Shown piece after piece: positions 2,543 to 15,509 of a DNA stretch of 21,010 nucleotides. Both the position numbers and the translations under genes were made by a program. Numbering within the stretch: the first letter of the stretch is position 1; the number at the start of each line of letters is the position of its first letter. The notes below the pieces were generated by a model. The model was not told the origin of the DNA. It saw nothing but the letters and a program-made list of their open reading frames with translations, and made no database searches. The stretch lies in the UHGV virus genome UHGV-1822439. One strand, given 5' to 3'. Origin of the DNA: a virus.

Positions 2543-2582
2543 CGCAATGACTCCATTATGTTAATTAACCTGGTAATTTTAC

Positions 2583-2623
2583 CATTTTGTGATCTGTGTT
2601 ACATTCCTGACCTATACAAAATG
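2583..2623. promoter_or_regulatory. Junction inverted-repeat element, site A
   Basis: CATTTTGTGATCTGTGT at 2583-2599 and TATACAAAATG at 2613-2623; TTTTGTGATCTGTGT is identical to site B (14768-14782). Lies between the divergent tail fiber (-) and lipoprotein (+) genes. Confidence 0.5.
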
Positions 2624-2701
2624 TATTTATTGATTTATATCAATGTTGAGAAAACGATGTTTATGGATACTACAACCGACGGAACAATGGAGGATAAGAC
2701 A

Positions 2702-2941
2702 ATGAAAGGCTTTAAAAATATCGCTATAGCTGCAATGGTCGCTGGTATGGTTGGTTGTGCTGATATGCCGAAACGTGAATGCACGGCAATTTATCAGGCT
2801 GGCGGTAATGAATATGCGGTTGCAGTCTTCGGTGTCGCGGATGTTGGCGGTCATAAAATGGTTAAGGCCGGGTATCCGTTTAACTTCCAATGGGTAAGCG
2901 TTGACCACTTCAAGAAAACGGATTGCCCGGAACTGAATTAA
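2702..2941 (+). CDS. Small lipoprotein (79 aa), antisense moron next to the tail fiber gene
   Basis: Perfect SD GGAGGA (2689-2694), 7 nt before ATG at 2702. N-terminus MKGFKNIAIAAMVAGMVG-C is a signal peptide with lipobox (MVGC); mature part ~60 aa with three further Cys. The ORF-track N-terminal extension from 2558 has no SD. Confidence 0.6.
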   Translation: MKGFKNIAIAAMVAGMVGCADMPKRECTAIYQAGGNEYAVAVFGVADVGGHKMVKAGYPFNFQWVSVDHFKKTDCPELN

Positions 2942-3537
2942 TCATAGGCGTCGGTTTTAATGGCGGTGATAGCGTTCCCGTGATTAATGTAACCGTAAAT
3001 CTGTTGCAAGCTACCAACCATCTTCCCGCGAATTCGTGTAGTGCTGCCGTTGTAGTATGCCTCTGTATATATTGTCGCAGAACCCATACCTACAACGGCC
3101 CCTAATATCTGAGGCACTACCGCATAAGATCCTGATAATGTCTGGTCGATATAAATTCCACCACTTGATCCGGCTGTCCCCACCGTAACAATGTCTGTCA
3201 ATATTCTTGATTCGTTTGTCAATACCAGTTCACCGGAAGCGTTCCATATAGCCATACCCCACTTCGGACGCGATTGCGGGAAGATACTGAATATATACGC
3301 GTAACCGTTTCCTGGTGGAATCACTATGGTAGACGATGAATTGCGATAGGCTACACCAGTAGCGGTATCGTCTGTGTTTTTTATGAATACCATTACAGGC
3401 TTCCCATTGGGGACGGCTATTGTTTGCTGTTGGCTTGAATTGAGAGCAACCCGTGAATAAAGGCACATAGGTGTCGAATCTGGAGTTACGAAAATATTGC
3501 CATTACTTAAACGTAAATAAGCGCCGAAAGTAGCCAT
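2938..3537 (-). CDS. Tail-associated hypothetical protein (199 aa), paralog of the upstream small gene
   Basis: ATG at 3537 directly abuts the upstream stop (TAAATG, 3540-3535). N-terminus MATFGAYLRLSNGN resembles MDTFGVATWDANGN of the upstream gene. Its 3' end converges on and overlaps the lipoprotein gene stop. Confidence 0.5.
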   Translation of the reverse strand: MATFGAYLRLSNGNIFVTPDSTPMCLYSRVALNSSQQQTIAVPNGKPVMVFIKNTDDTATGVAYRNSSSTIVIPPGNGYAYIFSIFPQSRPKWGMAIWNASGELVLTNESRILTDIVTVGTAGSSGGIYIDQTLSGSYAVVPQILGAVVGMGSATIYTEAYYNGSTTRIRGKMVGSLQQIYGYINHGNAITAIKTDAYD

Positions 3538-9173: not shown

Positions 9174-9878
9174 TTAACCTACCTTGCTGGAACCAGGAAA
9201 ACAGGAGATCGGCAGTGCTGCCGGACGCGGAAAACGCAAACGGCAACCGCTAAGGCGGTGGCTGCATTTGTCTAACGTTGGGTCACTTGTTGGTGTATCT
9301 TTATCAGTTGCGACCGGGCCGCCAGAATACATGCACCCGTCGCCTCTGTATTGCCACTGACAAACGTCAGCAAGGATGGTGCGCCCTGGGATAACGGCTT
9401 TATCTGCATCAATTGGCGTTGACAATTCATATTGCACCTGATCCGCTGTTTCTTCGCTCATTGCTTCAACGACGTAAAAAGATACAGCCTCAATAGATGG
9501 ATCTGCGTCTGGATTGCCGTTAGGGAAGTTAACGGCGTCCAGGTATTTAACCTCCACCTGGCGGCGCGTAACCTTCATTCCTCGCAGGTCGTTGAAATCG
9601 TTATTCATCCCTGTGATTAGCCCGCCGATATTGGCTACAACCATTTGAGGCCGCGAATAAACGCCCTCGTTTTTCATTTCGAAGCCCGTCGTCTCGATCG
9701 GGTAGCTGTTGTAAGCTACTCCCTTCCAGATAACCTGGCCGTAATAGCCGTTCGCGCCGGAATGGAAGCGGATAACCTCGCCTCCCAGGGGAGTAAGGTC
9801 CAGTTCAAATAAGTCAATGACCGCGCCAACTCCGGCATCGACGGAATCAATAATCATCTCTCTCGGAATATTGCGCAT
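9174..9878 (-). CDS. L: Minor tail protein L (234 aa)
   Basis: Similarity to lambda L (RRQVEVKYLDAVNF vs RRKVYARFLDAVNF; C-terminal Cys cluster C..GCMY..KCSHRLSGC). SD AAGGTGAG 5 nt before ATG at 9878. Confidence 0.85.
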   Translation of the reverse strand: MRNIPREMIIDSVDAGVGAVIDLFELDLTPLGGEVIRFHSGANGYYGQVIWKGVAYNSYPIETTGFEMKNEGVYSRPQMVVANIGGLITGMNNDFNDLRGMKVTRRQVEVKYLDAVNFPNGNPDADPSIEAVSFYVVEAMSEETADQVQYELSTPIDADKAVIPGRTILADVCQWQYRGDGCMYSGGPVATDKDTPTSDPTLDKCSHRLSGCRLRFPRPAALPISCFPGSSKVG

Positions 9879-9891
9879 TTTCTCACCTTGT

Positions 9892-9930
9892 CATTTTGTG
9901 ATATGCGTCACGCTAAATCACACCAAAATG
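9892..9930. promoter_or_regulatory. Junction inverted-repeat element, site C
   Basis: CATTTTGTGAT (9892-9902) and ATCACAccAAAATG (9917-9930) form an imperfect inverted repeat, 14 nt upstream of the L start on the minus strand and just before the plus-strand cassette. Confidence 0.5.
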
Positions 9931-9932
9931 GA

Positions 9933-9961
9933 TTGTTCATGGTTTTTACAATATGTATATT
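9933..9961 (+). promoter_or_regulatory. Candidate sigma70 promoter for the L/M-junction cassette
   Basis: TTGTTC (9933-9938), 17-nt spacer, TATATT (9956-9961). Weak -35; by eye only. Confidence 0.3.
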
Positions 9962-10007
9962 TTACTCAAACGAAGGGGAAGTTAACAAAATGGCGCGGAG
10001 GTGCGTT

Positions 10008-10196
10008 ATGACTGAAAAGCCATGGAAGTTGACGGTATTCATGACAGACGGTAGGGAAAAGGTTATCGCCCTGTATGACGACGAGGGGGAAGCATTGGTT
10101 GACGCGCTTTTACTTGCTGAGGATGACCGCCTTTTGGGATACCAGATCGAACCTGTCAAATATGAGGCTAACAAAAATGAAAAAATACAGTCTTGA
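10008..10196 (+). CDS. Small acidic protein (62 aa), first gene of the L/M-junction cassette
   Basis: SD GGAGG (9997-10001) 6 nt before ATG 10008. MTEKPWKLTVFMTDGREKVIALYDDEGEALVDALLLAEDD...PVKYEAN; paralogous to the N-terminus of the next gene. An alternative start at ATG 9990 is possible. Confidence 0.55.
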   Translation: MTEKPWKLTVFMTDGREKVIALYDDEGEALVDALLLAEDDRLLGYQIEPVKYEANKNEKIQS

Positions 10197-10524
10197 TGTG
10201 TGGTTAAGTGGTAGCAAGGAGTGTTTCGGATTATTTGATAGCGAAGAAGTAGCCCTGGAAGAAGGCAGGATTCTTGAATGTAGTTTAGGCCATCCAGTGA
10301 AATATGCTGCTAATCCGGTACAGATAGTTGATGAGGTGGAAGATATGAACCCGAAAGATATTAATGTTAACTTCAATGTTAATTTTGCAGACTCTATGGA
10401 TCAGTCTTGCCCTGGTGAAATACACGCAAAAGGTTTCCCGGCTGACGATCCAGAAGCAAAACGCGAATACGAAAAAGCTGCGAAAGACTTCTGCATGGAT
10501 AATCTTGCAGCATTCGATAAATAA
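10177..10524 (+). CDS. Acidic protein (115 aa), tandem paralog of the preceding gene with a C-terminal extension
   Basis: ATG 10177 overlaps the preceding gene by 20 nt. N-terminus SLDVWLSGSKECFGLFDSEEVAL...GHPVKYAAN aligns with ...LTVFMTDGREKVIALYDDEGEAL...GYQIEPVKYEAN; strongly acidic. A GTG at 10198 is an alternative start. Confidence 0.55.
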   Translation: MKKYSLDVWLSGSKECFGLFDSEEVALEEGRILECSLGHPVKYAANPVQIVDEVEDMNPKDINVNFNVNFADSMDQSCPGEIHAKGFPADDPEAKREYEKAAKDFCMDNLAAFDK

Positions 10525-10533
10525 GGGGGATAC

Positions 10534-10782
10534 ATGGGGCGGCGCAATCACGGCGATTATGTGTACACGCTGAAACAGGCCGCCCGCCTCGTTGGTTATC
10601 ATGAACACGAATTTATTGATTTGCTGATTGAGCGCGGGATACTGTACCAGGTCTGTTTAACGCTGTACCCGAAAGCTAAATACCTACAGGAAAAGTTATT
10701 TATCATCATGACGGATGAAAACCAGGTTAACCATTCATTCGTCACTGATAAGGGCGTTAATTATCTGCGTGATAACTTATAG
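10534..10782 (+). CDS. Small protein (82 aa), possible helix-turn-helix DNA-binding protein
   Basis: SD AAGGGGGA (10524-10530) before ATG 10534, 9 nt after the preceding stop. Segment TLKQAARLVGYHEHEFIDLLIERGIL has a helix-turn-helix-like pattern (by inspection only). Confidence 0.5.
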   Translation: MGRRNHGDYVYTLKQAARLVGYHEHEFIDLLIERGILYQVCLTLYPKAKYLQEKLFIIMTDENQVNHSFVTDKGVNYLRDNL

Positions 10783-10792
10783 GTGACAGATT

Positions 10793-10909
10793 ATGAAAAT
10801 AGAAGTTTTGGCGCTAATAATAATGGGATTGATAGTATTTGGCGTTCATGCTGTAGATCTGGACTGGAAAACGATAGCGGAAAATATAGCATTAATGGAA
10901 ATGGAATAA
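10793..10909 (+). CDS. 38-aa hydrophobic peptide (single TM or signal-peptide-like N-terminus)
   Basis: SD AGGTGA (10781-10786) before ATG 10793. MKIEVLALIIMGLIVFGVHAVDLDWKTIAENIALMEME, stop TAA followed by two more in-frame stops and a terminator. Below the ORF-track length cutoff. Confidence 0.45.
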   Translation: MKIEVLALIIMGLIVFGVHAVDLDWKTIAENIALMEME

Positions 10910-10914
10910 TAATA

Positions 10915-10940
10915 ACCCCGCTTCGCGCGGGGTCGTGTTT
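10915..10940. terminator. Intrinsic terminator closing the L/M-junction cassette (possibly bidirectional)
   Basis: Stem ACCCCGC (10915-10921) / GCGGGGT (10927-10933), loop TTCGC, then CGTGTTTAT; on the minus strand the hairpin is followed by TATTATTATT. Confidence 0.6.
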
Positions 10941-10987
10941 ATACGCCATCAACCAAAAATAAAACCCCCTTCCCTTCCCGGGATCTA

Positions 10988-11125
10988 CACCCCCACGTAC
11001 CCATCGCCAACGTCGTGAAGATACCATATATCGCCGTTGTCAGCTTTTACAGTAAGGTCGTTGATCTCATAGTCGTCAAACAATGTAAAAGCGTAAGTTT
11101 TGTCAACCACACAAGTCCCGTACAT
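10988..11125 (-). CDS. Possible small ORF (46 aa) just downstream of M
   Basis: ATG at 11125, 12 nt after the M stop, preceded by GGGGGG with about 6-nt spacing; MYGTCVVDKTYAFTLFDDYEINDLTVKADNGDIWYLHDVGDGYVGV. No family recognised. Confidence 0.3.
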
Positions 11126-11137
11126 AACAACCCCCCA

Positions 11138-11491
11138 TTAGCCAACAACTTGTTCAAACGTTGCGTTTAGCGTGTACACAGGCCCGTCTTTGGTCATGCT
11201 CCAGCTACGGCAAACGAAAAGCCTTTGCACCCCGTCGATCGATGGAGTCCAGTAAAACGCCTCGACAGCGCCGCGCGCCCTCAAAAATGCTTCGGCCTGG
11301 ATCGCCACGTTTCCACCATCACCACATCCCGCGCTACTGCCTTTGAAAACCAGGGTATAACTATCAAGCAACGTGTTAATCCCTTTCGCCTGGCGCTGTT
11401 CATAACCATCACCAAGTTTAACGACAGACACATTTGGTTCCCTGGTCACGCTGTAGCTTCTTTGCGGCGTCCATCTGAAAACTTCTGGCAT
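11138..11491 (-). CDS. M: Minor tail protein M (117 aa)
   Basis: Similarity to lambda M as recalled (FRW near N-terminus, GDGYEQR vs GDGYSQR, C-terminal FEQVVG vs FEQVVN). SD AGGGGGA before ATG 11491. Confidence 0.85.
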   Translation of the reverse strand: MPEVFRWTPQRSYSVTREPNVSVVKLGDGYEQRQAKGINTLLDSYTLVFKGSSAGCGDGGNVAIQAEAFLRARGAVEAFYWTPSIDGVQRLFVCRSWSMTKDGPVYTLNATFEQVVG

Positions 11492-11557
11492 GATTCCCCC
11501 TATAAGTTACATATTGCATACATCTTTACGCGCTTCTACGCGAAAAATGAGAAATTC

Positions 11558-11589
11558 ATCACAAGAATTATAACCAGTTTACAAAATGG
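11558..11589. promoter_or_regulatory. Junction repeat element, site D
   Basis: ATCACAAgAA (11558-11567) and TTTACAAAATGG (11578-11589): same half-site family as sites A-C, immediately upstream of the candidate promoter. Confidence 0.4.
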
Positions 11590-11590
11590 C

Positions 11591-11619
11591 TTCACATAAG
11601 GCGTGACAAGATGTATATA
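11591..11619 (+). promoter_or_regulatory. Candidate sigma70 promoter for the M/tape-measure-junction cassette
   Basis: TTCACA (11591-11596), 17-nt spacer, TATATA (11614-11619); about 40 nt upstream of the first SD. Confidence 0.45.
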
Positions 11620-11660
11620 GTAAGCAAGAAGAAAAAGCAGTACCGACAAAGGAGGCCAAT

Positions 11661-11816
11661 ATGAAGCGTTATGTAGTGGTAATGCTGAACAACGCATTCG
11701 AACAGGTGGAAGTGGCGATAGTCAAAGGCTTTGATGACGCATTCAAATACGGTCAATTCATGATGAATGCGAAGGAAAACGAGTACCGTGATTTCTTCCT
11801 GAAAGTGGTCAACTAA
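11661..11816 (+). CDS. Small protein (51 aa), first gene of the M/tape-measure-junction cassette
   Basis: Strong SD AAAGGAGG (11648-11655), 5 nt before ATG 11661; MKRYVVVMLNNAFEQVEVAIVKGFDDAFKYGQFMMNAKENEYRDFFLKVVN. Below the ORF-track cutoff. Could be the partner (antitoxin-like) of the next gene. Confidence 0.5.
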   Translation: MKRYVVVMLNNAFEQVEVAIVKGFDDAFKYGQFMMNAKENEYRDFFLKVVN

Positions 11817-11834
11817 TGGATTGTGGGGTGTGTT

Positions 11835-12089
11835 ATGAAATTGGTGGCGATTGGTAAAAACCTGAAAGCACAGAAAAACGCACAGGACCGGATCATCAAG
11901 AAAGGAAAGCAATTGCTTGATGCTTTTCTTAAAAAAGAGGCCAACCCCAAAAAATTACGCGATGGCTACGGTTATAAATTTGACATCAACCCCGATTGGC
12001 GGTTATTCAGCGAAGATTTAAAGATGTGGTTAATTATTGACCACCTGGAATATAACAGGCACTGTGGGGTGAAAGGCGCTCACAAGTGA
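11835..12089 (+). CDS. Small basic protein (84 aa), candidate RelE/ParE-superfamily-like toxin
   Basis: ATG 11835, 18 nt after the upstream stop. MKLVAIGKNLKAQKNAQDRIIKKGKQLLDAFLKKEANPKKLRDGYGYKFDINPDWRLFSEDLKMWLIIDHLEYNRH. Pattern (basic N-terminal helix, NP..KL..G, D.R, C-terminal H/Y) loosely resembles RelE/YafQ/YoeB toxins; weak, from memory. Confidence 0.3.
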   Translation: MKLVAIGKNLKAQKNAQDRIIKKGKQLLDAFLKKEANPKKLRDGYGYKFDINPDWRLFSEDLKMWLIIDHLEYNRHCGVKGAHK

Positions 12090-12120
12090 CACGGATTTGA
12101 ATGTTGCGGAGGAAAACAAA

Positions 12121-12291
12121 ATGAAAAATCCGGCAAATAAAAGCAACGTAAAACGCATGGCATGGGTGCTAAAATATATGGATAGTAAAGGGGATACATA
12201 TACATGCCCATTTTTTAGGTGTACTGACGCGGTATTTGCCAGAAGTGTACACGGAGGGAAAATTGAGAGAGGATATACAAGATTTGAGTAA
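12121..12291 (+). CDS. Small basic protein (56 aa), hypothetical
   Basis: SD GGAGG (12108-12112) 8 nt before ATG 12121; MKNPANKSNVKRMAWVLKYMDSKGDTYTCPFFRCTDAVFARSVHGGKIERGYTRFE. Confidence 0.45.
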   Translation: MKNPANKSNVKRMAWVLKYMDSKGDTYTCPFFRCTDAVFARSVHGGKIERGYTRFE

Positions 12292-12329
12292 ATTTATTCA
12301 CGAAATCAATAACATGATGAAGGTTTATA

Positions 12330-12509
12330 ATGATTATTCATGATACTGAAGAATGCAGAAGGATTGATCTTAGTATTGAAGATGACGGAAGATTATGGAT
12401 CGTTAGCGACTGCGAGATGATTGTAATAGACAAAAAGCAAGCTGACGAACTGATAAGAGCATTGCAGCTTTATGCAAACGGCGAATTTAAAAATGATGAA
12501 ATTGAATAA
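12330..12509 (+). CDS. Small acidic protein (59 aa), hypothetical
   Basis: SD GAAGG 8 nt before ATG 12330; MIIHDTEECRRIDLSIEDDGRLWIVSDCEMIVIDKKQADELIRALQLYANGEFKNDEIE; stop 12507-12509, immediately followed by a terminator. Confidence 0.45.
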   Translation: MIIHDTEECRRIDLSIEDDGRLWIVSDCEMIVIDKKQADELIRALQLYANGEFKNDEIE

Positions 12510-12513
12510 AATA

Positions 12514-12540
12514 GCCCCGGCATTGTGCCGGGGTTTTGTT
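12514..12540. terminator. Intrinsic terminator, bidirectional (closes the cassette; also follows the tape measure gene on the minus strand)
   Basis: Stem CCCCGGCA (12515-12522) / TGCCGGGG (12526-12533), loop TTG, then TTTTGTTTATTT on plus; on minus the hairpin is followed by CTATTTTATTC. Confidence 0.75.
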
Positions 12541-14753
12541 TATTTCCTGCGAGGTTGCAGCATTCCGCCTGGTCTGGATGATTCGCGGTGCATCAGGCCC
12601 ATGCAGATCCTTTCCATGTCCTGTTGCAGCTTTTTGGCATCCTCATCGCTCCATCCATTTTGTGGGTAAACACTAATCGGCGCGTTTATGCTAACGCTAC
12701 CACCACCAGCACCACCAATGTCGCGATTTGGTATTACCCTGCCGTTGTCACCCGGGATCATGTACTGACTCCCATTGCTCGCCTGAAAGATCTCCGGTTT
12801 ACCGTGTTCGCCGACCTTATAGAGGCTGCCCGCAGCCACCGCACCGCCGTTATAACGAGCGCCAGCCAGGCCAAGCGCTTTTGCTCCAGCCACACCAGTG
12901 GCAAGACTCGTACCCCCCACGGTCGCCGCGCCGCCCATCGTGGCTACGTTTGCCAGGTATGCAGGAGTAGCCCACGCAGATCCCAAAGCGGTAGCCTCTG
13001 CCAATGCTTTAGCTGTTGCGGCTGCGCTGGCGGCCTCGCCTATCAATTGCTGCTTGACCCATTCAGCCCCCATTTGAACAAGCGTACCGATAACGGAGGA
13101 AAGGATTGTATTGCCAATGTTAGCCAGCGCCTGCTGCCAGCTTTGAGTGCCGTTAACCAGGCCCACAAGCGCATTTGTTGCAGATCCGCCCATTGCATCA
13201 ACGGTATCGCCCAACAGTTTGTAGCTCATTGACTGTGCTTTATATCGCTCCCACTCAAGGGTGAGCATTTCCTGTGCGTGCGCTCTTTCTTGTTCCCTCA
13301 TATATTGCTCAGTAGCGCCAAGATCTTCCAGCATTTGCTTACGAACGGTCCATTCATTTTGCGCCTGCTGTATTGGGTCTAGTTCACCGCGCTTCTGATC
13401 CAGTGATGGAATCATTTTGTCCCATTTTTCTTGCAGCCTATTGATCGGGTCGTTAATTTCCGCCAGAGTTTCGCGCAATTCATCACCAATTCCCTTCATT
13501 GCGCCTTTGTATTCAAGCATGGTTATTTTCCCGGCTTTAAAGGCTGCATCTATGGCTTTTTGTGATTCAAGCGCTTTGCGCATTGCTGCCGAATCTTCGT
13601 TATATGCATCTGAAATGCGCACACCCTGTTCCGCAAGGCGCTCGGCTTCTGATTTGCCGGTTTTTTTACCTTTGCCTTTCTTACCCTTACCACCAGGTTG
13701 AGGCTTAAACGTTATGCGACTTACACCAGCTTGCCCCGTGGGGAGAGTGGAAACAAATGGCTGTTCTCCGCCATCAAACCATCCAACCTGTTTCGCTTGA
13801 GCGCGGAACAAACTAAGCCCAGGCACTATACCCTCAAACGCCCCAGCCAATAGCCACAATTTATCAGTTAATGACGTGCTATCGCTCGCCAGGGACTTAA
13901 ACCAACCAGATAACATCTGGACTTCACTAGAAACAGCCTGTATACCAGTAACTACCAAATCAGACACTCCAAGCGTTTGGTTTAGCGTGTCAATTAACAG
14001 ATCGAAGTTGTTTTTTAGCTCGTTAAATGCCTGATCTGTTGTTGTTGGCAGTTTTGCGAAGTCCTTCTCTATGTCTTCTGCGCCAGCAAGAATTGAATTG
14101 GTAACATCCTCGGCGGTGAGCTTACCATCAAGCATTCTTGCGCGAAGTTCACCCATCGAGATCCCCATTTGTTTGGCGACGCGTCGCCATACTTCGGGCA
14201 TGTTTTCAAGCACAGAGTTGTATTCTTCCGCGCGAACAATGCCACCCGTCAGGGACTGCCCTAACTGGCGAAGTGCGTTTGACATTTCATCTGATGAGCT
14301 ACCTCCGATACGGCCTATTTTCTGAAGCGAGTCGGTAAGCTGCAATACCTGCTGACTGGTCGCGCTGGTATCCTGTAGGCTGGCTTTTAGGCTTTCCCAC
14401 AGCTTCCCGGTGCTTTGAACACTCATCCCTGTGCGATTCGATATCTGAACAATCCCGTCAAAATTCGATTTTGCGTCAGCAATGCCGCTTGATAGTCGTG
14501 TTACCCTGGCGCGTAGCAGATTTACGTTATCTGCGATCTCCAGGAATTTTTTTGCAGCCATGACCATCATTCCAATGTTCACGGCTTTGGATAAATTACT
14601 TATCGTGGTATTAAGTGACTGCACTGATTTATCGGTGCGTTTAGCGCCTTGCTCGATTTTATCAAACGAGTCCTCCGCCTTGCGTTGAGCTACTAGTAAC
14701 CGCTCGGTTTTTGCGTCAACGGTATACTCAATCGTGCCCACATTTGTTGTCAT
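12540..14753 (-). CDS. Tail length tape measure protein (737 aa)
   Basis: Large ORF between the chaperone and M; alpha-helical, Ala/Gln/Leu-rich with Gly-rich and Lys-rich segments (KGKKGKGKK); SD GGAG before ATG 14753. Confidence 0.85.
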   Translation of the reverse strand: MTTNVGTIEYTVDAKTERLLVAQRKAEDSFDKIEQGAKRTDKSVQSLNTTISNLSKAVNIGMMVMAAKKFLEIADNVNLLRARVTRLSSGIADAKSNFDGIVQISNRTGMSVQSTGKLWESLKASLQDTSATSQQVLQLTDSLQKIGRIGGSSSDEMSNALRQLGQSLTGGIVRAEEYNSVLENMPEVWRRVAKQMGISMGELRARMLDGKLTAEDVTNSILAGAEDIEKDFAKLPTTTDQAFNELKNNFDLLIDTLNQTLGVSDLVVTGIQAVSSEVQMLSGWFKSLASDSTSLTDKLWLLAGAFEGIVPGLSLFRAQAKQVGWFDGGEQPFVSTLPTGQAGVSRITFKPQPGGKGKKGKGKKTGKSEAERLAEQGVRISDAYNEDSAAMRKALESQKAIDAAFKAGKITMLEYKGAMKGIGDELRETLAEINDPINRLQEKWDKMIPSLDQKRGELDPIQQAQNEWTVRKQMLEDLGATEQYMREQERAHAQEMLTLEWERYKAQSMSYKLLGDTVDAMGGSATNALVGLVNGTQSWQQALANIGNTILSSVIGTLVQMGAEWVKQQLIGEAASAAATAKALAEATALGSAWATPAYLANVATMGGAATVGGTSLATGVAGAKALGLAGARYNGGAVAAGSLYKVGEHGKPEIFQASNGSQYMIPGDNGRVIPNRDIGGAGGGSVSINAPISVYPQNGWSDEDAKKLQQDMERICMGLMHRESSRPGGMLQPRRK

Positions 14754-15011: not shown

Positions 15012-15509
15012 ATGAAACGGCTAGTAAAAGTCGCGGTAGCTGCGGTCATGGCAATATTCGCGGTCAATGCAAATGCAAGTAATGAAGTCAGCAAGATGTG
15101 CGACGCTATTTATCCAGCCTACGAAAAAGCATATACAATGGCAAATGTAAACTTTTTTTCAATTGGTAGGCACGGCGTTAACTGGGAGTATTTCATCTTA
15201 AATAAAGATAGCAGGACCAAAAAAGGTGACGCTGAAATGATAAAAGCGCACGGTGAAAGTTTCGCTTTCGTGATGGCTGCTGCTGAAAACAAACAAAATG
15301 ATAATGAATTTAAAAACTTTGTCGCTGGACTTGCCATCATGGCTGCTGAACGGGCGATAAAAGATCACGACAATAACGCTTATGCCGCTGCCGACGGGAT
15401 GGCATTAGATAGGGTAAGAATTGACTTCAAAAACATGTGCGTCAAAGAAGGCGCTAACATGTATAAAAAAGTAATAGATAAACACCACGAATATTATATA
15501 GGTTATTAA
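15012..15509 (+). CDS. Secreted/periplasmic protein of unknown function (165 aa), moron
   Basis: SD GAGG 6 nt before ATG 15012; signal peptide MKRLVKVAVAAVMAIFAVNANA with Ala-x-Ala cleavage site; two Cys in the mature part; Ala/Lys/Asn-rich, likely helical. Confidence 0.6.
   Translation: MKRLVKVAVAAVMAIFAVNANASNEVSKMCDAIYPAYEKAYTMANVNFFSIGRHGVNWEYFILNKDSRTKKGDAEMIKAHGESFAFVMAAAENKQNDNEFKNFVAGLAIMAAERAIKDHDNNAYAAADGMALDRVRIDFKNMCVKEGANMYKKVIDKHHEYYIGY

Follow-up and report, generated by a model that had tools for sequence, protein, structure and literature searches.

An antisense cassette with a predicted RelE/ParE-fold protein between the tape measure and M genes of an mEp021-type prophage: a possible moron operon

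The virus genome UHGV-1822439 (one strand of 21,010 nucleotides (nt), called the window in its whole length) carries a cassette of four small plus-strand genes, named here g1 to g4, between the minus-strand genes for the tape measure protein and an M-like minor tail protein. We lean, with modest confidence, towards the view that this cassette is a phage moron operon, expressed in the lysogen and antisense to the late tail operon, with the product of g2 as its effector. Three features of morons are found here: an insertion between genes that lie side by side in related phages, a terminator of its own, and a deviant G+C content (39.4%, versus 50-52% in the flanking M, tape measure and L genes). 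An antisense insert of about 1 kb with four genes had been reported at this place in a preliminary description made from the window alone, and its length, gene sizes and coordinates stand, as listed below together with the isoelectric points (pI) of the products, the Shine-Dalgarno (SD) sequences and the names given by the Prokaryotic Genome Annotation Pipeline (PGAP) in an identical record from Escherichia coli M15.

11138-11491, minus strand: M-like minor tail protein gene (117 amino acids, aa), 'phage tail protein' by PGAP in the M15 record
11492-12539: gap between the M-like gene and the tape measure gene, 1048 nt
11591-11619, plus strand: candidate sigma-70 promoter TTCACA-N17-TATATA, read from the sequence
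11661-11816, plus strand: g1, 51 aa, pI 6.1, SD AAGGAGG
11835-12089, plus strand: g2, 84 aa from ATG, pI 9.8, SD GGGG, Pfam PF24732 (ParE_like)
12121-12291, plus strand: g3, 56 aa from ATG, pI 9.8, SD GGAGG
12330-12509, plus strand: g4, 59 aa, pI 4.3, SD GAAGG
12513-12545 (hairpin 12513-12535 plus T-tract), both strands: bidirectional intrinsic terminator with a G+C-rich stem of 9-10 bp
12540-14753, minus strand: tape measure gene (737 aa), 'tape measure protein' by PGAP in the M15 record

The spacers between the four genes measure 18, 31 and 38 nt (g1-g2, g2-g3 and g3-g4, respectively) and the plus-strand coding density of the gap is 73%. The window is 100% identical to a part of the chromosome of E. 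coli M15 (NZ_CP185789), in which the minus-strand gene order according to PGAP is tail tip fibre J, I, K, L, M-like, tape measure, a DUF6246 protein, tube, terminator and major capsid. Its nearest phages are mEp010, mEp044, mEp515, mEp013, mEp554, mEp021 and MagusPhagus, and it is an mEp021-type (mEp-immI) prophage, not the lambdoid one that it had first been taken for; the describers of the mEp-immI group call its members Nus-dependent, non-lambdoid gut coliphages (PMC11893012). The genes of the cassette are not discussed in that genome paper. DNA related to the window is present in 33 of 5426 complete E. coli genomes.

The junction was surveyed in 80 loci gathered through the M protein, in which the gap was measurable in 28 mEp-immI loci and in 48 loci of a sister group whose M protein is ~70% identical. 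All of the 28 mEp-immI loci have a gap of 681-1393 nt. In the sister group the gap is -4 to +2 nt in 18 of the 48 loci, in line with the earlier statement that the tape measure gene is normally followed directly by M, while 29 loci have 165-491 nt and a single one 1620 nt, and the inserts are unrelated small open reading frames (ORFs) on either strand. Since the two genes abut in 18 sister loci and the others hold unrelated inserts, the tape measure/M junction is a recurrent insertion site, that is, a moron hotspot, with the abutting arrangement as the ground state. The cargo found at the sister-group junctions (L098-L139, ~3010-3500 in each) comprises a same-strand acidic ORF of 70-73 aa, an antisense ORF of 75-79 aa, an antisense membrane-anchored ORF of 132 aa and one insert of 1.6 kb.

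All four ORFs of the cassette are protein-coding and under purifying selection. Relatives were collected as 44 viral contigs gathered through g1, together with annotated phage and E. coli loci, and the ratio of nonsynonymous to synonymous substitution rates (dN/dS, pooled Nei-Gojobori) was calculated from 24, 34, 19 and 12 distinct nucleotide versions of g1, g2, g3 and g4, respectively. The ratios obtained (0.050 for g1, 0.086 for g2, 0.130 for g3 and 0.183 for g4) stand beside 0.076 for the tail gene M, and it is because they are low, while shifted frames of the same DNA give ratios of nonsynonymous to synonymous differences (pN/pS) of ~1-2.8, that we regard the ORFs as genes; the comparison of synonymous with nonsynonymous changes, which the preliminary description had named as a way of refuting its own proposal, thus supports coding for all four. 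The ATG and the length of each ORF are kept wherever it is present (17-48 related loci), g3 being the one whose end shifts by 1-2 codons in some loci (56-58 aa in 23 loci). That these are chance open frames, lying in a non-coding spacer or antisense to something else, might be suspected from their shortness (51-84 aa) and from the fact that PGAP did not call g3 in M15; the substitution pattern, however, already refutes this explanation, to which we give practically no chance, and the conserved starts and lengths over 12-34 distinct nucleotide versions per ORF, the neutral behaviour of the shifted frames, the presence of Pfam and PHROG matches and the absence of any RNA family in an Rfam scan of the window all speak against it. 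The expectation that default gene callers would miss some of the genes was right for g3, but g1, g2 and g4 are annotated in M15.

The promoter that had been proposed for the cassette lies exactly at 11591-11619 and is conserved, although it is imperfect in its -10 element. Among 41 distinct upstream sequences of relatives, TTCACA-17-TATA(T/C)A occurs in 39, with a spacing that is always 17 nt, and conservation reaches 91% over the 169 nt that precede g1, the most variable stretch there being the (first part of the) promoter spacer. A promoter is favoured because hexamers and spacing are conserved while the spacer varies, and judged by this pattern 11591-11619 is a plausible candidate for a sigma-70 promoter. 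No conserved palindromic operator was found in the promoter region of the relatives. A direct repeat TACGCG-N4-TACGCG followed by an A-run (11530-11547) is strongly conserved; it precedes the candidate -35 hexamer by ~45 nt and, on the other strand, the start codon of M by ~40 nt. The SD sequences, all of which had been called strong, are so for g1 and g3 but only moderate for g2 and g4.

The bidirectional terminator was found on both strands, as first described. Its hairpin, with T-runs on either side, abuts the stop codon of the tape measure gene and folds with minimum free energies of -21.2 and -16.8 kcal/mol, to which z-scores of -4.8 and -3.7 correspond. Nearly all relatives have a hairpin at this position, although its stem comes in three unrelated sequences. 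Internal terminators or hairpins were found neither in the window nor in the relatives, apart from a single locus with an extra insert. The four genes look like one operon, as had been supposed from their tight spacing. We also considered 'moron stacking', in which copies of the terminator would lie between modules, and rejected it since none was found save at that one locus.

The four genes form a unit in the window but not one that is fixed across the relatives, which show 26 architectures among 48 loci. In these loci the unit has a single candidate promoter and, save at the one locus with an internal hairpin, a single terminator. Every locus gathered through g1 has g2 beside it, N-terminally truncated at one of them (L045), and g1 is present in 48 of the 50 loci of the group, being precisely missing in a metagenomic locus (L086) and in E. 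coli UMNK88 (L087). Each of g3 and g4 occurs in 23 loci, about half, the count for g4 including alleles 44-48% identical, and among the other inserts between g2 and the terminator are the gene for an HNH endonuclease of 168 aa and ORFs of 49 and 95 aa, the latter hydrophobic. The cassette is therefore modular. Its promoter region and g2 stay the same and g1 almost does, while recombination exchanges the cargo at the 3' end (g3, g4, HNH and others). The HNH gene (Pfam HNH_3, 70.6 bits) lies at 2743-3249 of the mEp515 locus (L006), and also occurs in L011, overlapping the end of g2. The g2 of both loci is a divergent allele (class C, ~62% identical to the g2 of the window), and its presence beside HNH suggests a homing-associated co-conversion, although class C is also found without HNH.

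Profile and structure searches gave a family for g2 only. Its product matches Pfam PF24732 (ParE_like) over residues 19-75 with 45.9 bits (gathering threshold 24.4) and an E-value of 5.9e-12, the same match is precomputed on all full-length homologues, and PGAP names relatives of g2 'ParE family toxin-like protein'. An AlphaFold model built with 23 close homologues was unusable (pLDDT, predicted local distance difference test, of 58); after the addition of relatives 23-34% identical, obtained by profile search, the model reached a pLDDT of 89.8 and a predicted template modelling score (pTM) of 0.80. Foldseek placed YoeB and YafQ on top for this model (probability 0.96, template modelling (TM) score ~0.49), and the best matches in BFVD (TM 0.71-0.78) came from two jumbo phages, fHe-Yen9-04 and RaK2, whose proteins bear the label 'ParE-like toxin domain'. 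From the model we are confident that g2 adopts an alpha/beta fold of the RelE/ParE superfamily. Sequence and profile searches of PDB with g2 found nothing meaningful and a comparison with E. coli YoeB by hhalign was not significant (E 0.07), so that the link of g2 to toxins rests on the fold and the Pfam match.

Across members of the family that are 23-34% identical, K40, R56 and N74 of g2 are invariant and H70 is nearly so, and the PF24732 signature reads P-[KR]-K-L, W-R-L and H-x-x-Y-N. In the model these polar residues are spread over two successive strands and the beginning of the C-terminal helix, a layout that recalls the catalytic one of RelE-type RNases; K40, R56, H70 and N74 are candidate active-site residues, as judged by their conservation. 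The alleles of g2 fall into three classes (A, B and C), which diverge from about codon 17 onward.

The other members of PF24732 have varied neighbours. In virulent Sortsnevirus phages the conserved neighbour is a downstream gene of 92-98 aa, while the upstream gene differs within the genus. In three loci of this type (L004 2489-3012, L051 1486-1991 and L052 1489-2005) a 73-aa homologue is followed after 5 nt by an acidic 92-98-aa protein, 45-52% identical between phages, and the two may be a toxin-first pair. In jumbo Alcyoneusvirus phages the family member sits after an unrelated gene of 116-118 aa. In loci of E. coli and Providencia that resemble integrative and conjugative elements (ICEs) (L054 2421-3285 and L058 2412-3294), and which also carry DnaB, AcaB and topoisomerase genes, a gene for a 94-97-aa member overlaps the end of a DUF2857 gene by 11 nt; DUF2857 is a domain of BisC, a subunit of the transfer-competence activator of ICEclc (PMC7423338), and this overlap is a conserved context for PF24732 that is not toxin-antitoxin-like. 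A partner gene common to the members elsewhere was sought and rejected, since the neighbours differ among Sortsnevirus, Alcyoneusvirus and the ICEs and none resembles g1, g3 or g4. The members thus have no partner in common, and the family also occurs outside settings of the addiction type. In the literature we found no paper that mentions PF24732 and no member of the family with a tested function.

The products of g1, g3 and g4 match no family in Pfam, NCBIfam or PADLOC, for g1 not even at E<=1. Two of them correspond to PHROGs to which no function is assigned, g1 to PHROG 29810 and g4 to PHROG 13627 (E 7.8e-8). A profile of g1 run against 1.84 billion representative proteins found 6 matches, all from this phage group except for one marginal repeat protein. 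Likewise, g3 was found only within the group, and g4 is confined to it apart from one weak match in an Acinetobacter phage.

We propose that the cassette works in the following way. The sigma-70 promoter at 11591-11619, probably constitutive and of weak or modest strength, would transcribe g1 to g4 in the lysogen, and the transcript would end at the bidirectional terminator. Late tail transcription would pass this terminator by antitermination and then run antisense over the cassette, which might damp its expression during lytic growth. The working part would be g2, most likely a small RNA- or translation-directed effector of the RelE/YoeB/YafQ type and not a gyrase poison, used in conflict with other phages or for the stabilisation of the prophage. 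The role of g1 may be that of a lineage-specific partner, which tunes or restrains g2 and is not strictly needed to tolerate it, while g3 and g4 would be independent, exchangeable small effectors.

We think it rather unlikely that g1 and g2 are instead a classical type II toxin-antitoxin (TA) module, serving addiction or abortive infection, in which g1, a labile antitoxin, would neutralise the RelE/ParE-fold toxin g2 by binding to it and would also autoregulate the promoter, with g3 and g4 as passengers. Order and sizes are typical of such a module, in which a small upstream gene is followed, here after 18 nt, by a basic RelE/ParE-fold protein under the same promoter, and g1 and g2 occur together in 48 of the 50 group loci. 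The PGAP name of the g2 relatives agrees with this too, as does the truncation of g2 next to an intact g1 in some prophages, Ecol_244 among them, which is like that of decaying TA loci; the part of g2 that is constant between alleles (residues 1-16 and the helix) could be a surface that binds g1. Against this stands the precise deletion of g1 in UMNK88 and L086, where g2 is intact and keeps its invariant residues. In the records without g1 (L087 3078-3500, identical to UMNK88, which is L145 2338-2759; L086 3078-3500) the ATG of g2 directly follows the same promoter, leader and SD, and g3 is present in all three; the L086 and L087/UMNK88 copies differ from each other, hence the g1-less state has persisted. 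Each of the two genes is thus found intact without the other being intact, and their co-occurrence is not obligate. Neither do they co-vary, since a single g1 protein sequence accompanies g2 of class A (4 loci), class B (11) and class C (6), alleles whose identity to the g2 of the window ranges from 62% to 90% or more. Furthermore, g1 belongs to no antitoxin family and has no relatives beyond this phage group, its near-neutral pI is not that of an acidic protein, and the promoter has no conserved palindromic operator, the spacer being its most variable part. On these comparisons the strict TA reading is weakened.

Alternatively, g2 could be a domesticated, non-toxic protein of the RelE/ParE fold with a regulatory or accessory part in the phage's own cycle, the cassette serving the phage and not the lysogen. 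PF24732 genes among the early-type small genes of virulent Sortsnevirus and jumbo Alcyoneusvirus phages, the ICE-like genes overlapping the 3' end of a DUF2857 (BisC-type) gene, the lack of a shared partner anywhere and the tolerance of g2 to the loss of g1 are all consistent with it. However, the antisense orientation, the separate terminator and the low G+C content are the signature of a lysogen-expressed moron (PMC3594210), several prophages that are otherwise alike carry a truncated g2, which the phage therefore does not need, and the invariant charged and polar residues of g2 resemble an active site more than a scaffold; we regard this explanation as improbable. A further and still more doubtful idea is that the antisense placement itself has a function. 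In this scheme g1, or a low level of expression, would restrain g2 as an active RelE-type RNase in the lysogen, and either late tail transcription that passes the bidirectional terminator in the lytic cycle or a superinfecting phage would shift the g1:g2 balance through convergent transcription or antisense RNA. Were this the case, a previously unstudied toxin family, PF24732, would have with its orphan partner a switch coupled to the life cycle, and the outcome would be abortive infection against rivals or, at a late stage of the phage's own cycle, a shut-off of the host.

The reading that we prefer, a lysogen-expressed moron operon with g2 as effector, has several results to contend with. 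A scan for consensus promoters did not list 11591-11619, because its second hexamer has no T at the last position, and found promoter-like sites in no greater number than in shuffled sequence. The T missing from the -10 element is the one at -7, which is near-universal in sigma-70 promoters. The gene for the presumed effector is truncated in some prophages (~9 of the 41 g2 clusters are fragments) and is therefore dispensable. None of the PADLOC models gave a significant match, the only one for g2 being partial, to the candidate PDC-M02A (13.9 bits, E 0.0099). Finally, no antitoxin is recognisable beside the relatives of g2 that virulent phages and ICE regulatory operons carry, and therefore the fold may have a non-toxic role.

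The cassette was called the second of its kind in the preliminary description, and a similar one indeed lies between L (9174-9878, minus strand) and M. This first antisense cassette spans 9879-11137, has a G+C content of 43% and carries plus-strand genes at 10008-10196 (62 aa), 10177-10524 (115 aa) and 10534-10782 (82 aa), after which there is a bidirectional terminator (10914-10934). The product of the third gene has a KilAC antirepressor domain (Pfam ANT, 29 bits) and the first two proteins have a common N-terminal domain of ~45 aa (hhalign E 2.6e-4). By eye g1 shares a beta-beta-alpha-beta arrangement with the small proteins of this cassette; its being their paralogue was rejected, as BLAST and hhalign show no relation. 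A minus-strand ORF of 46 aa (10985-11125) lies just downstream of M, ahead of the terminator of the L-M cassette, and at this place mEp010 and mEp515 have an annotated hypothetical gene of 61 aa. A plus-strand ORF of 165 aa (15012-15509) stands between the tape measure gene and the DUF6246 gene at the chaperone position, in the slot that gene 15 occupies in phage HK97; the N-terminus of its product, MKRLVKVAVAAVMAIFAVNANA, looks like a Sec signal peptide, and the protein has no Pfam match. Elsewhere, a plus-strand gene that PGAP calls 'phage exclusion lipoprotein Cor' lies downstream of the tail fibre region (window 2558-2941), and in the M15 chromosome an IS903B transposase gene lies just outside the left end of the window (L001 1-47).

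Morons of tail operons are textbook knowledge and the genes of the cassette are already deposited as hypothetical proteins. What is new is the recognition that this junction serves a prevalent group of gut coliphages as a modular cargo bay for small accessory genes, the fold of the RelE/ParE type that is predicted for g2, and the natural experiments (deletion of g1, swaps of alleles and truncations) that argue against a simple TA reading. PF24732 gains a tractable setting, with natural variants that have or lack the upstream partner, three classes of alleles and truncated forms. If g2 is active, structural operons that hold toxin-like effectors of prophages become places in which to look for genes of defence and conflict; if it is inert, it is a caution against taking 'ParE-like' annotations as TA systems.

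Among known morons, gene 15 of HK97 lies inside the tail operon with its own promoter and terminator (PMC3594210). Gene 15 and the lambda morons lom and bor, like the cassette, are additions between late genes that adjoin each other in relatives, deviate in G+C content and consist of small genes dispensable for the virion. We considered and rejected the notion that gene 15 occupies the same junction, for its place is one junction further upstream, between the gene for the tail chaperone and that for the tape measure protein. The cassette differs from these morons in that it has four genes with a swappable 3' part in place of a single gene and is antisense to the tail operon; its proteins are unrelated to gp15, Lom and Bor.

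When set against the pairs YefM-YoeB, DinJ-YafQ, RelBE, HigBA and ParDE and the prophage pair PaaA2-ParE2, g2 showed no sequence similarity. Its modelled structure begins with an N-terminal beta-hairpin and one long helix, where the usual RelE/ParE toxins have a strand and two helices, and g1, which resembles no antitoxin, is naturally dispensable and does not co-vary with g2. By hidden Markov model and by structure g2 is of the same family as the proteins of the Yersinia phage fHe-Yen9-04 and the Klebsiella phage RaK2. Whereas PF24732 genes of virulent phages and ICEs are found in co-directional arrays or overlapping DUF2857, g2 is part of an antisense moron and has the orphan g1 beside it.

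For the antisense arrangement, the Tha/Ith system of Staphylococcus aureus phage 80alpha is a noncontiguous, antisense-nested operon of prophage defence genes, for which the coupling to the life cycle by convergent transcription was experimentally shown (PMC11087260). Similar to Tha/Ith, the cassette is a unit with its own promoter (a candidate one here) that lies antisense inside a long phage operon, and such nesting implies that expression of the cassette and of the operon hosting it could be mutually exclusive. The two differ in that Tha/Ith sits in the lysogeny (cI) operon and the cassette, known from sequence alone, in the late tail operon, and their proteins are unrelated.

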